Below, one piece after another: positions 23,964 to 40,051 of a stretch of 64,000 nt of DNA. The translations under genes were made by a program, and so were the position numbers. Position 1 is the stretch's first letter, and every line of letters begins with the position of its first letter. A model generated the notes under the pieces. That model saw only the letters and a list, made by a program, of their open reading frames with translations, ran no database searches and was not told the origin of the DNA. The stretch comes from an uncultured Chlamydiae bacterium (lineage in GTDB: Bacteria > Chlamydiota > Chlamydiia > Chlamydiales > JAJFMB01): assembly GCA_963696295.1 (NCBI GenBank), contig CAVOJR010000001.1:2368001-2432000 (forward strand). The letters are read 5' to 3'.

Positions 23964-24929
23964 ATGAGCAAAGCACTTCTCGCCCTAAGCGACGGCACTC
24001 TTTTCCATGGACGAAGCGGCGGCTGCCGTAAGACGGTTTCCGCCGAGATCGTTTTCAACACCTCCATGACCGGCTATCAGGAAATTTGCACCGATCCCTC
24101 CTATGCCGGCCAAATCGTCCTCTTTACCGCGAGCCATATAGGAAATACAGGCGTGAATAGGGAAGATTCGGAATCGGGGAAAGTCTGGGTAAAAGGGGTT
24201 ATCGTCCGCGAAATGTCAAAGACGAGCAGCAACTGGCGGAGCGAAAAGAGCTTTATCCAGTTCCTGGATGAGCATCAAGTGCCTTGGATCGAGGGGCTGG
24301 ACACGCGCAAACTGGCGAGGCATCTCAGAAAAAACGGGACGCAAAACGGCTGCCTGATGACGGGCGGCGACGCGAAGATTTTGCTCTACGATTTTGGGGT
24401 GAAATCAAGCCTCTTAAACGCGCTTGGCTGCGGCGTACATGTGGTCCCAAAAAATTTTCCGGCAGCCGAAGCGCTTGCTCTCAATCCCGACGGGATCATT
24501 CTCTCCAACGGACCGGGAGATCCGGCTGCGATAAACCTGGAAGAAATAAGAACGCTGGTCTTTAGCGGGGTGCCGGTTTTGGGCATTTGCCTCGGATGCC
24601 AGCTGATCGCCCTTGCCGCCGGCGGGAGCACCAGAAAGCTTAAATTCGGGCATCATGGCGCCAATCATCCGGTTTGCGATCTCAAAAATAACAAAGTCTA
24701 CATCACCAGCCAAAACCACAATTTTGTCGTCGACGAAACAACGCTTCCGCCTGAATTTGAAGTGACCCATCTCTCTTTAATCGATGGTTCCGTGCAGGGG
24801 ATCAGAGCCAAGAACTATCCGGTAATGGGCTTTCAGGGGCATCCCGAAGGGGCTCCGGGGCCGCAGGATATGCCCCTGTTTCAAGAATTTCTGGAAGAGG
24901 TCGGCCATGCCCTTAGACTGCTCCATTAA
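23964..24929 (+). CDS. carA: Carbamoyl-phosphate synthetase small subunit (shortened interdomain linker)
   Basis: [46 protein letters not shown]; catalytic Cys-His-Glu intact; 321 aa. Confidence 0.95.
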
Positions 24930-27642
24930 AAAGGTGCTGGTGATCGGCGCCGGACCGATCGTGATCGGGCAAGCCTGCGAGTTTGACTATGCCGGCACAC
25001 AGGCCTGCAAAGCTTTACGGGAGGAGGGGTGCAAAATGATCCTCCTCAACTCCAATCCCGCCACCATCATGACCGACAGCGCCGACGCGGTTTACATCGA
25101 TCCCATCACACCCCAAATGGTCGAAAACATCATCCGGCGCGAACGCCCCGACGCCCTTTTGCCCACCATGGGAGGGCAGACGGCTTTAAACTGCGCTAGA
25201 GAGTCGGCTTCTATTTTGGAAAAATATGGAGTCCGTTTGATCGGCCTGACGCTCGAGACCCTGGAGAAGGCAGAAAACAGATCCATATTTCAAGCGGAAA
25301 TGGAGAAAATCGGGTTAGAGGTGCCAAAATCCTATTCGGCGCATGAGGCAGAGTTTCCGGTGATTGTCCGCCGCTCCTTCACTTTGGGCGGGCAGGGAGG
25401 GGGCGTCGCGCATGACTTCGAGGAGCTGGAGCGACTCTGTCAAGGAGGGGAACTTCTGATTGAAGAATCGCTGATAGGGTGGAAGGAATTCGAACTCGAA
25501 GTCATAAGAGACCGGAAGGGAAACTGCATTGTCGTTTGCGGCATAGAAAATATCGATCCCATGGGGATTCACACGGGTGATTCCCTGACTGTCGCACCGA
25601 TCCAGACCCTGACCGATAAAGAGTATCAGCTGATGAGAAAAAAGGCTTTTCAAATCCTGGAAGCGATCGGCATGACCGGGGGATGCAATGTCCAGTTCGC
25701 CGTCGACCCCAAAACAGGCAGAATGCTCGTCATTGAAGTGAACCCGCGGGTTTCCAGGTCATCGGCCCTCGCTTCCAAGGCCACCGGCTATCCGATCGCC
25801 AAAATCGCCGCCAAGCTCGCCCTGGGATACCATCTGGATGAATTATACCTAAACAACTTGATGAGTTGGGAATTGGGCAAGGAGGTTCCTTCAATTTTTT
25901 TTCCGGAGCGAGTGACCATTGCCGGTAGGCAAGGCACGAGTGAGGACGAAAAATTGAAGGTAAAACCGACGAAGACCAAAACCAACTCTTCAAGTTGTTT
26001 GGGTATAAGTTACGGAACAATGCCCGCCTTTTTCGAACCGGTCATCGATTATGTGGCAGTGAAGATTCCCCGCTTTAATTTTGAGAAGTTCCCCGAGGCG
26101 GACCGCACCCTCACCACCCATATGAAATCGGTCGGCGAAGCGATGGGCATCGGCAGCACCTTTAAAGAAGCGCTGAATAAAGCCATTTCCAGTCTGGATG
26201 CCCCATGGCATCCCAGGGGTTCTTACGATCCCTGGTTTACGGCGCAAATCGACGAACTGATGGCGGAAGAAGAAGCTGTCAAATTGCTCGAAACAATTGA
26301 CCTTTACCGTCTGAAACGGATGGGCTTTTCCGATGCGAGGCTGGCCGCGCTTTTAAAGTGCGGTGAGGAGCAAATCGCGGAAAGGCGAAAGGAACTTGGC
26401 CTCTATCCCGTCTATAAACGGATCGACAGCTGCAGCGGCGAGTTTCAAAATGAGATAGCCTGCCTCTATTCGACCTACGAAGAGGAGTGTGAAAGCGCGC
26501 CCACCGGAAAGCCAAAAATTCTGGTCTTGGGCAGCGGCCCCAACAGAATCGGGCAGGGAATAGAATTTGATTATTGCTGCGTCCATGCCATCAAGGCCAT
26601 CCGGGAGATGGGGTATGAGTCGATCCTGATCAACTGCAATCCCGAGACGGTCTCCACCGATTACGATACTGCAGACCGCCTCTATTTTGAGCCCCTGACT
26701 TTAGAGCATGTGCGCGAAGTGATCCGCATTGAGAAGCCCCTGAGAACCCTCATTTCATTTGGGGGACAGACCCCCTTGAACATCGGCAGGCATTTAGGTC
26801 TTACCCCCCCTTGCATAGACCTGGCCGAGGACAGAGAGAAATTCCGCCTTTTTGCCGCGAAAATCGGGCTGAAGCAGCCGCAAAACGCCGTTTTTTCAAC
26901 ACCTGCAGAGGCCTCCCAAATGGCCAAAATAATCGGGTTTCCCCTGATACTCAGGCCCTCGTACGTCATTGGCGGCAGCGGCATGCAAATCATCCGGAAT
27001 GAAAAGGAGCTTGAGGCGCAAGGCCCGTTGGCAGCTCCCGTTCTGATGGAGGCGTTTTTGGAAGGGGCTATGGAAGTCGAGGTGGACGCCATCAGCGACG
27101 GCAAAGAGGTGTTTATCTGCGGCATTGTCGAGCAGGTGGAGCCGGCTGGAATACACTCCGGGGATTCCATGAGCTTCCTCTCCCCTTATAAACTGAGTAA
27201 ACAGTTTCAGGAGGCCCTGGTGGAGCAAACGAGAAGGATCGCCCTTTCCCTTCAGGTGGTGGGCTTATTGAATGTCCAATTCGCCATTCACAACGGCGAG
27301 ATATTCGTCCTGGAAGTGAACCCGAGGGCTTCCAGAACCATTCCGTTGCTATCCAAGACAACCGGTCTGCCCCTTGTGCAAATGGCCACGAAATGCCTCC
27401 TGGGCCTCCCGTTGGAAAGCGGCATAGCCGAGCCGAAATTTTTGGGATTAAAGCTGCCGGTTTTTCCATTTTCAAGGCTGCATATTGAAGAAAAGCTGGG
27501 GCCGCAAATGAAATCTACGGGCGAGGTTTTATGCACGGGCCGGACGTTTGAAGAATTGTTTGCCAAGGCAAGGCTATACGCATTGCAGGATAAACATCTA
27601 TTTACAAAGGATTTAGAGTCGAAACTCTCACCAAATCGTTAA
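24907..27642 (+). CDS. carB: Carbamoyl-phosphate synthetase large subunit, streamlined (no C-terminal allosteric domain), with a 54-aa in-frame insertion
   Basis: [70 protein letters not shown]; ends about 35 aa after MKSTGEV. Confidence 0.95.
25844..26007. mobile_element. Palindromic MITE-like element inserted in frame in carB (160 bp plus apparent TA duplication)
   Basis: Terminal inverted repeats ttatacctaaacaacttgatgagttgg / ccaactcttcaagttgtttgggtataa (25/27 match); inner IR ccttcaattttt / aaaaattgaagg; removing 162 bp restores [18 protein letters not shown]. Confidence 0.85.
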
Positions 27643-27706
27643 GTAATGGTATTGCCTATAAAGAAAACTTTTAGTAAATTGTGGCTCTTTTGGAGACAGT
27701 GATTTT

Positions 27707-39020: not shown

Positions 39021-39028
39021 GGGAACTT

Positions 39029-40051
39029 ATGCTTACCTGTCCAACTCACATCGATAACGACCAGGTGATCACCCTGGCCCATGGCAGCGGCGGGAAACAG
39101 ACCAGCCAGCTCATCGAAAAAATCTTCCTGCCGGCCTTTAAGAATGAGAAATGGCTCCATGACGGCGCCCTGCTCGACATTCCCGCTCATCAGATTGTGT
39201 TCACAACCGATTCTTTTGTGGTGCAGCCCGTTTTTTTTCCGGGAGGCGATATCGGCAAGCTCGCTGTGACAGGCACGCTGAACGACCTGGCCATGTGCGG
39301 GGCGAAGCCCCGTTATTTGAGCTGCGGCTTTATTATTGAAGAGGGCTTTTTGCAAAGCGATCTGGTGCGGATCGTCTCTTCCATGCAACAGGAAGCCGAG
39401 GCCAATTCCGTGCAGATTGTCACGGGCGACACCAAGGTGATAGAGAGGCAGACGGGCAAGAATATCTTCATCAATACGAGCGGCATCGGCATCAGTATGG
39501 CAAAAGAGCCGGTCACCCCCCAGCGCATTCAGAAGGGGGATAGCATCCTCCTTAGCGGCGACATCGGGCGGCATGGGATGGCCGTCATGGCCAAGCGGGA
39601 AGGCCTGGAGTTTACCTTGCCACTATTGAGCGACTGCTGCTCCCTGGTTCCTATGGTAGAGGCGCTGCTTGGCGGCATAGACGTGCACTGCCTGCGCGAC
39701 CTGACGAGGGGGGGCCTCGCGACGGCTCTCGTCGAGCTTGCCGAGGCATCCCAAATGGAATTTATGATCCTCGAAGAATCCGTCAGCGTGAGCGGTCCGG
39801 TCAATAGCGCCTGCGAGATTCTGGGATTCGATCCTTTATATGTGGCGAACGAAGGGCGGTTTGCCGCTTTTGTCCCCAAAAGCCAGGAAAAAGAGGCGCT
39901 GCAAATCCTTCGTGAGTTTTCCTCCGAGGCCGCAATCATCGGGGAAGTGACGGAGCAAACCGCCTCTCCCTGCGCCCTCTTAAAAAACTCCTTTGGGACC
40001 AAGCGGTATCTCTACAGGCTGGTAGGCGATCAGCTTCCGAGGATTTGCTAA
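39029..40051 (+). CDS. hypE: Carbamoyl dehydratase HypE
   Basis: LAHGSGG, TTDSFVV, GDTKV, RDLTRGG, C-terminal PRIC. Confidence 0.96.
   Translation: MLTCPTHIDNDQVITLAHGSGGKQTSQLIEKIFLPAFKNEKWLHDGALLDIPAHQIVFTTDSFVVQPVFFPGGDIGKLAVTGTLNDLAMCGAKPRYLSCGFIIEEGFLQSDLVRIVSSMQQEAEANSVQIVTGDTKVIERQTGKNIFINTSGIGISMAKEPVTPQRIQKGDSILLSGDIGRHGMAVMAKREGLEFTLPLLSDCCSLVPMVEALLGGIDVHCLRDLTRGGLATALVELAEASQMEFMILEESVSVSGPVNSACEILGFDPLYVANEGRFAAFVPKSQEKEALQILREFSSEAAIIGEVTEQTASPCALLKNSFGTKRYLYRLVGDQLPRIC

Follow-up and report, generated by a model that had tools for sequence, protein, structure and literature searches.

Organization of the carAB-hydrogenase locus

The stretch of DNA analysed here, referred to as the window, comprises 64,000 nucleotides (positions 2,368,001 to 2,432,000) of contig CAVOJR010000001.1 from an uncultured Chlamydiae bacterium (assembly GCA_963696295.1). 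The host genome, labelled G000 in our survey, is 97.4% complete, and its contigs are denoted C1 and C2 (135 kb). The window contains the forward-strand genes carA (23964..24929) and carB (24907..27642), which encode the glutaminase subunit (321 aa) and the large subunit (911 aa) of a carbamoyl-phosphate synthetase (CPS), in the neighbourhood of a [NiFe]-hydrogenase cluster; the encoded CarB lacks the C-terminal MGS domain. Both proteins score over the cut-offs of their families (TIGR01368 for CarA; TIGR01369 for CarB, with 1121 bits and a cut-off of 1027). The two genes lie in a tight forward-strand run that opens with a phosphoketolase gene (xfp, 18828..21194; NF003619 over cut-off), followed by genes for a DUF302 protein (21179..21580; PF03625) and a proton-efflux P-type ATPase (pma, 21577..23949; TIGR01647 over cut-off), and that ends with carA, carB and nicO (27707..28699), at spacings of -16, -4, 14, -23 and 64 bp. 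The last gene encodes a high-affinity nickel permease of the NiCoT family (HoxN/NixA; TIGR00802 over cut-off) with an RHALDADH motif. A promoter and terminator scan of positions 18000-31000 gave chance-level results (5 vs 10.2 and 21 vs 17.5, respectively), and the operon limits are therefore drawn from the gene spacing.

A gap of 1675 bp separates nicO from the hydrogenase genes. It holds, on the reverse strand, a gene for a BBP7 beta-barrel porin (28758..29882; PF07585), with a paralogue at C1:1114620, and a broken remnant of a 2Fe-2S ferredoxin domain (29958..30317; PF00111 on 30015-30227, and reading frames). The porin gene has a GC3 of 0.52, below that of its neighbours. The cluster resumes on the forward strand with the beta subunit gene hyhB (30375..31488), whose frame is split near 30570 as judged against the hyhB of genome G176, a gene for a cNMP-binding, CRP-like protein (31460..31924; PF00027), the FAD/NAD(P) gamma subunit gene hyhG (31924..32712), the small subunit gene hyhS (32709..33482) and the large subunit gene hyhL (33466..34809; PF00374), hyhG and hyhS being recognised by profile matches. 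It continues with genes for a maturation protease (34802..35254; TIGR00072), a short HypA of 86 aa (35236..35496; profile matches), the carbamoyltransferase HypF (35402..37687, although translation probably begins near 35486; TIGR00143 over cut-off at 709 bits), HypC (37733..37954; TIGR00074, starting with MCLALPG), HypD (37938..39020; TIGR00075) and HypE (38987..40051; TIGR02124), which ends in PRIC. The beta-gamma-small-large order, together with the L1 and L2 cysteine motifs of HyhL (RICGIC and DPCISCSAH, plus a C-terminal extension), identifies a group 3b hydrogenase (HyhBGSL). The best NCBIfam matches of the subunits are sulfhydrogenase subunits (alpha in the case of HyhL), albeit below the archaeal cut-offs of those families. 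HypF has both zinc fingers and its motifs intact.

An earlier, sequence-only reading of this DNA had placed carAB directly before the nickel transporter and the hydrogenase operon, with no pyr or arg genes nearby. The strand and the adjacency of nicO bear this out, and no pyr or arg gene was found among the 54 window open reading frames (ORFs) scanned, but 1675 bp with a porin gene and a ferredoxin remnant intervene before hyhB.

CarA and CarB have catalytic but not regulatory parts

The pre-ATP-grasp and ATP-grasp profiles each match CarB twice. The MGS profile (PF02142) does not match it even at an E-value of 0.1, compared with 9.7e-22 for E. coli CarB, and found no match anywhere in the G000 genome. 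The protein ends 37 residues beyond the MKSTGEV motif, and all 12 allosteric positions checked (S948, T977, K993 and T1042 among them) fall in gap columns. E. coli residues 406-451, part of the oligomerization domain (401-552), are also missing, and the PF02787 match covers just positions 33-79 of 80. Smaller deletions relative to E. coli correspond to residues 150-159, 196-202, 654-661 and 737-742, and the alignment of CarA lacks about 55 residues of the interdomain linker. These observations agree with what had been read from the sequence, namely a CarB that keeps both ATP-grasp halves, has lost the MGS domain, and is reduced to 857 aa (not counting an insertion) with a shortened oligomerization region. 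Window CarB is thus not of the canonical allosteric type of E. coli, as judged from its sequence.

The residues expected for catalysis are retained. CarA has the GICLG (at 207) and FQGHPE (at 290) motifs expected of a glutaminase with a Cys-His-Glu triad. In all 32 proteins of the clade described below, R129, R169, E215, H243, Q285, E299, N301 and R303 of the first ATP-grasp half are kept, as are R715, E761, H788, Q829, E841, N843 and R845 of the second; these are catalytic positions as numbered in E. coli. E892, assigned to the ornithine site, is changed in all 32, which is weak evidence since Glu is kept in just 28 of 39 full-length references. An AlphaFold2 model of window CarB, built with 65 sequences, has a local confidence (pLDDT) of 86.8 and a predicted TM-score (pTM) of 0.88, and a Foldseek comparison with E. 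coli CPS (1a9x, 1bxr, 1jdb) gave query TM-scores of 0.87-0.89 (1bxr: 0.89, rmsd 2.6). By triad, two synthetase halves and fold, the predicted products are a glutamine-dependent CPS II, and with catalytic residues and fold intact the enzyme does not appear to be inactive.

The insertion in carB (25844..26007) is an in-frame miniature inverted-repeat transposable element (MITE) with terminal inverted repeats of about 26 bp and TA flanks, adding a net 162 bp, or 54 aa. Copies are dispersed across contig C1. The 15 longest were examined, and eight of them fall within ORFs of at least 150 aa, in which respect the element resembles the Rickettsia palindromic elements. Terminal repeats, flanks and dispersed copies rule out an intein or intron. 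The MITE segment (residues 318-369) is the only part of the model of low confidence (pLDDT <50), and is modelled as a disordered loop.

No RNA run was listed among the sequencing runs containing this DNA; three soil runs shared 5-8% of words and yielded short near-identical contigs. One spans the CarA deletion (24177-24411) with 0 differences, and another the carB stop and nicO start (27507-27824) with 1 difference and 0 gaps. The truncation of CarB is therefore real; an assembly error is ruled out by these contigs and by the MGS-less clade proteins.

Relatives of the MGS-less CarB and their gene neighbourhoods

A homologue ranking scored 8000 candidates and listed 120. The first 32 of these, a clade headed by window CarB (849-1008 aa), have no PF02142 match, while the next 88 do. 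A survey of Chlamydiota scored 400 genomes for carB (found in 120), hypF (16) and pyrF (121), one further genome being unscored for these; the NodU-type profile PF02543 matched in 10 of all 401. After 14 carB genomes had been set aside as non-standard (G297 after inspection of its locus), pyrF was present in 99 of the 106 genomes with a standard-type carB, and within 25 kb of it in 66. Window CarB is 35-42% identical to the standard CarB of chlamydial pyr operons and lies on a separate branch.

Eight MGS-less CarBs were found in the 400 genomes by a scan that left out 13 carB frames of less than 1050 codons, two of which end at contig edges. Four of the eight flank hyh/hyp genes (G000, G126, G188 and G297), and the other four flank a NodU/CmcH-type carbamoyltransferase gene (G326, G194, G082 and G005). 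None of the eight loci has a pyr or arg gene beside carB, and no match to aspartate or ornithine carbamoyltransferase (ATCase, OTCase) was found in the seven genomes other than G000. The variant is therefore not hydrogenase-specific, as the same type adjoins NodU/CmcH clusters, which qualifies the original idea of a CPS dedicated to hydrogenase maturation. Among the 10 NodU genomes, four have adjacent MGS-less carAB, four have a standard carB and pyrF with NodU elsewhere, and in two no carB was found and NodU is at a contig edge. A cassette of a GDSL-like protein and a NodU-type carbamoyltransferase recurs at loci L069, L076 and L228 (G326, G082 and G283, respectively), preceded by carA-carB in G326 and G082.

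The six closest loci (57-69% identity, window included) comprise four that flank hyh/hyp genes, one with a NodU-type neighbour and one without context, so that close homologues do not reside in pyr or arg operons. A GTDB pattern scan gave 21 stretches, of which 11 were annotated; five of these 11 contain clade members, including two duplicates of loci already counted. In L189, carB ends 3 bp before hyhB; L194, from an error-rich assembly labelled Verrucomicrobiae, has carA-carB-hyhB through hypE; and L199 has a clade CarB without context. As a control, 80 generic metagenome carB loci (48-54% identity, none in the clade) were taken from a metagenome scan that was saturated by the universal CarB motif: MGS was present in 72 of the 72 with complete ends, and none of the 80 had hyp or NodU neighbours. 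A plasmid search gave 68 records, all below 60% identity; 40 were listed, and none of these is a close relative.

The 16 hypF genomes can be divided into eight with and eight without a pyr operon (the former comprising seven recognised by pyrF and G267 by a carAB-pyrB operon; the hyp contig of G042 is just 4 kb). Flanking of hyp genes by carAB was observed in five of the eight pyr-less genomes versus none of the eight pyr-bearing ones, as far as the retrieved hyp regions extend (Fisher p 0.026), namely in G000, G126, G188, G297 and additionally G168. Genome G176 has the same xfp-DUF302-hyh-hyp cluster (67-91% identity) without carAB, and a full pyr operon.

Tree analysis placed the 32 clade proteins and G194 in one strongly supported clade, with G005 as sister. 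The CarB of G188 falls among arg-operon CarBs with a degenerate MGS, that of G082 near those, and that of G297 on a long, unstable branch. In approximately unbiased (AU) tests (32 rows, a quick LG+G4 tree, with groups named after a first tree), neither the MGS-less rows as a whole (p 1e-4) nor the hyp-linked rows (p 1.8e-11) could be accommodated in one clade, so that single origins of MGS loss and of hyp linkage were rejected. Among the 150 top representatives of 50% clusters, 13 are short-tailed after the terminal motif and scattered over several branches. By the AU tests, the MGS domain appears to have been lost more than once. An arg operon of G228 (L072:7219-11199) encodes a CarB-ornithine carbamoyltransferase fusion of 1326 aa with a degenerate MGS.

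Carbamoyl phosphate and its users in the host

The window carB is the only one in G000; a broken carA fragment on the second contig (C2:38193-38592, L003), 73% identical to window CarA, suggests that this type of carAB has moved on mobile DNA. Orotidine monophosphate decarboxylase (pyrF), amidohydrolase/dihydroorotase, argG and a NodU-type carbamoyltransferase were not found in the genome, nor were pyrC and pyrE by tblastn with chlamydial operon queries. Carbamate kinase, considered as an alternative source of carbamoyl phosphate, was likewise not found in the genome. The window CPS is thus the sole one of the genome, but not that of a complete pyrimidine pathway.

Proposed role and alternative explanations

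Considered together, the neighbourhoods of the homologues, the incomplete pyrimidine pathway and the apparently intact catalytic residues support a feedback-free CPS that serves hydrogenase maturation, much as the sequence-only reading had it. We consider it likely that MGS-less CarAB is a private, feedback-free source of carbamoyl phosphate for carbamoyltransferases outside the pyr and arg pathways, in this case HypF. CarA and CarB, probably as an alpha-beta protomer, would form an active glutamine-dependent CPS without the domain that binds UMP, IMP and ornithine, and would make carbamoyl phosphate for HypF without pathway feedback. HypF would then carbamoylate the C-terminal cysteine of HypE, giving rise to both CN ligands at the [NiFe] site of the group 3b enzyme, with nickel provided through nicO. 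A full-length CPS would be inhibited by the UMP that a pyrimidine-scavenging host imports; where both pyrimidines and arginine are scavenged, effector signals would be useless, which may explain why the cluster has a CPS without control domain. We infer that the MGS domain was lost because control by the pyr and arg pathways had fallen away, and not as an adaptation specific to hydrogenase.

A number of observations, both here and under the alternatives below, weigh against this role. Neighbourhoods are known for a minority of the 32 clade proteins, and the Fisher p-value is overstated, as the genomes are related and not independent. The hyp-linked CarB of G168 is of the arg type and frameshifted, with a weak degenerate MGS behind the frameshift, which implies that MGS loss is not required for hyp linkage. 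Three of the eight pyr-less hypF genomes have no adjacent carAB: that of G206 lies on a different contig, G329 lacks carB and its hypF is broken, and no carB match was obtained in G338, which is 86% complete. Finally, the HypABCDEF set is incomplete, as the cluster contains no hypB and none was found elsewhere in G000.

HypB over cut-off was also found in none of the 15 other hypF-carrying Chlamydiota (0/16 with the window genome), and HypA is short, the one in the window having no CxxC motifs and thus no zinc-finger cysteines. This suggests, at the sequence level, that nickel insertion may be HypB-independent; NiCoT genes often occur in the hyp clusters of hypF-carrying Chlamydiota. The earlier description of the island as a self-sufficient module for nickel uptake, carbamoyl phosphate and Hyp proteins is correct in that nicO, carAB and hypF are present, but 'self-sufficient' overstates the case, given the missing hypB and a hyhB that is frameshifted in this assembly.

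The best surviving alternative, albeit an unlikely one, is that the cluster is decaying in G000, with a crippled or inactive CPS and a hydrogenase pseudo-operon, in a clade that is functional as a whole. One extra base near 30570 frameshifts hyhB in this assembly, a porin gene and a ferredoxin remnant lie within the cluster, and window CarB and CarA bear extra deletions (in the B-domain, the oligomerization region and the CarA linker), in addition to the in-frame MITE. Moreover, hypF or carB is broken in G329, G318 and G168, and two of 14 relative-rate tests were significant: with seven sisters, none of seven using E. coli as outgroup, and two of seven using an in-clade outgroup, the window branch being the faster. 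The dN/dS ratios were uninformative because dS was saturated in 4/4 pairs. Against decay, carA, carB and hypF are free of stops, CarB keeps 161 of 174 reference-invariant columns, comparable to its sisters (157-167), similar deletions occur in clade proteins P0004, P0009, P0011 and P0015, and in the structural model the MITE forms a disordered loop. At the hyhB break, a near-identical soil contig (a single contig of depth 2.6) has 261 bases over 262 window bases, with 0 substitutions and 1 gap somewhere along this length, suggesting that the frameshift is an assembly error or a strain-level change.

It is less probable still that the CPS mainly feeds an orphan PyrB, for carbamoyl-aspartate or for a route completed by the host or by unrecognized enzymes, with the hyp neighbourhood being secondary. 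G000 does have a true, isolated ATCase gene (pyrB at C1:1592507, L001:997-1959; TIGR00670 347 bits, cut-off 237) and an isolated pyrD-like gene (C1:430448, L038:6449-7516; 43% identical to the operon gene of G176). The notion of an auxotrophic host is upheld by the failure to find pyrC, pyrE, pyrF and argG, but qualified by these two genes. However, pyrB is about 0.8 Mb from carAB, and both it and the pyrD-like gene start with a signal-peptide-like leader (by eye), so their products are possibly exported. A similar leader-bearing pyrB (68%) is found in G001, of the same family, in which no carB was found (81% complete), and, as described above, pyrC, pyrE and pyrF were not found in G000, nor pyrB in the seven other MGS-less genomes.

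Least probable is that MGS loss is specific to hydrogenase maturation, e.g. by freeing a surface on which HypF docks to channel the labile product: hyp-adjacent placement has been repeated from at least two CarB lineages, but half of the MGS-less CarBs flank NodU-type enzymes, G005 and G194 branch deeper in clade A, and G168 keeps its MGS remnant.

Returning to the private CPS for HypF and NodU-type enzymes, a wider and tentative possibility is that MGS-less CarAB represents a recurrent, convergent class of accessory CPS that is portable, feedback-free and probably non-oligomerizing, and is acquired by pyr/arg auxotrophs with HypF or NodU-type enzymes. In combination with a NiCoT permease and a HypA that has no zinc and works without HypB, it could give intracellular bacteria a minimal kit for a [NiFe] hydrogenase, and might pass its labile product directly to HypF.

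Other features of the region

The xfp-hypE stretch has a GC content of 53.5%, compared to 47.1 +/- 1.9, which is higher than in any other 21 kb of the chromosome and consistent with acquisition. Just after hypE (41402-47772) lies a complete N-ATPase operon including atpR; a second F1 beta gene is found at C1:1944332. In G176 the hydrogenase cluster is likewise accompanied by xfp and DUF302, and in G126 and G318 by the proton-efflux ATPase, hinting at a survival module for acid or hypoxia.

Comparison with known systems

Bacterial CPS is usually viewed as a shared allosteric gateway to arginine and pyrimidines that has a side drain into hydrogenase maturation. In the window host CPS has apparently been retained for the side drain alone, and the control domain seems to have been discarded more than once, which would account for the building of a [NiFe] site by nucleotide-scavenging intracellular bacteria. 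Whether CPS can dispense with its allosteric and oligomerization parts is thereby put to a natural test, and the enzyme is a candidate compact, feedback-free CPS for heterologous synthesis of hydrogenase or carbamoylated products; MGS-less carAB may also serve as a marker for carbamoyltransferase pathways in auxotrophs.

According to two reports, both CN ligands derive from carbamoyl phosphate, via HypF and HypE (PMC12134894; PMC6022934), and E. coli CPS also supplies it to HypF (PMC12134894). As outlined in PMC6245113, UMP, IMP and ornithine bind the C-terminal domain of E. coli CarB (residues 933-1073), and CPS assembles into dimers and tetramers by way of its regulatory and oligomerization domains. 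The window enzyme resembles E. coli CarAB (1BXR, 1A9X, 1JDB) in subunit layout, ATP-grasp domains and catalytic residues, at 48-49% identity. It differs in that CarB has neither residues 933-1073 nor 46 oligomerization residues, that CarA is about 55 linker residues short, and that carAB lies beside hyp genes in a host without complete pyr and arg pathways.

In the open literature, subscription papers aside, we found no account of a CarB that lacks the MGS domain and is linked to hyp or NodU genes. Group 3b [NiFe] hydrogenases have been reported in environmental chlamydiae (Kostlbacher 2021, PMC8242063); the hydrogenase type is the same, but its passages on carbamoyl groups and hydrogenase say nothing of a carAB linkage, of a lost MGS domain or of an absent hypB. 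The hydrogenase operon of a Legionellales symbiont, as described in passages of a preprint, is accompanied by HypB and the arginine deiminase pathway, with no linked CPS (10.64898/2026.04.11.717937).

Feedback-resistant CPS mutations occur in uridine overproducers, as noted in PMC5417507. Like the engineered enzymes (E. coli S948F and T977A; B. subtilis PyrAB E949*), window CarB has a lost or damaged C-terminal effector domain, although those are laboratory mutants in a pyr/arg context. The C-terminal truncations of Czerwinski (1995), likewise laboratory mutants, are reported to stay partly active. Reduced natural CPSs, as described in PMC6022934, include the 41-kDa enzyme of Methanobrevibacter smithii and the split CPS.A/CPS.B of Aquifex aeolicus. 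In contrast to these single-domain or split forms, window CarB is a fused two-domain enzyme that is minus the regulatory end only.

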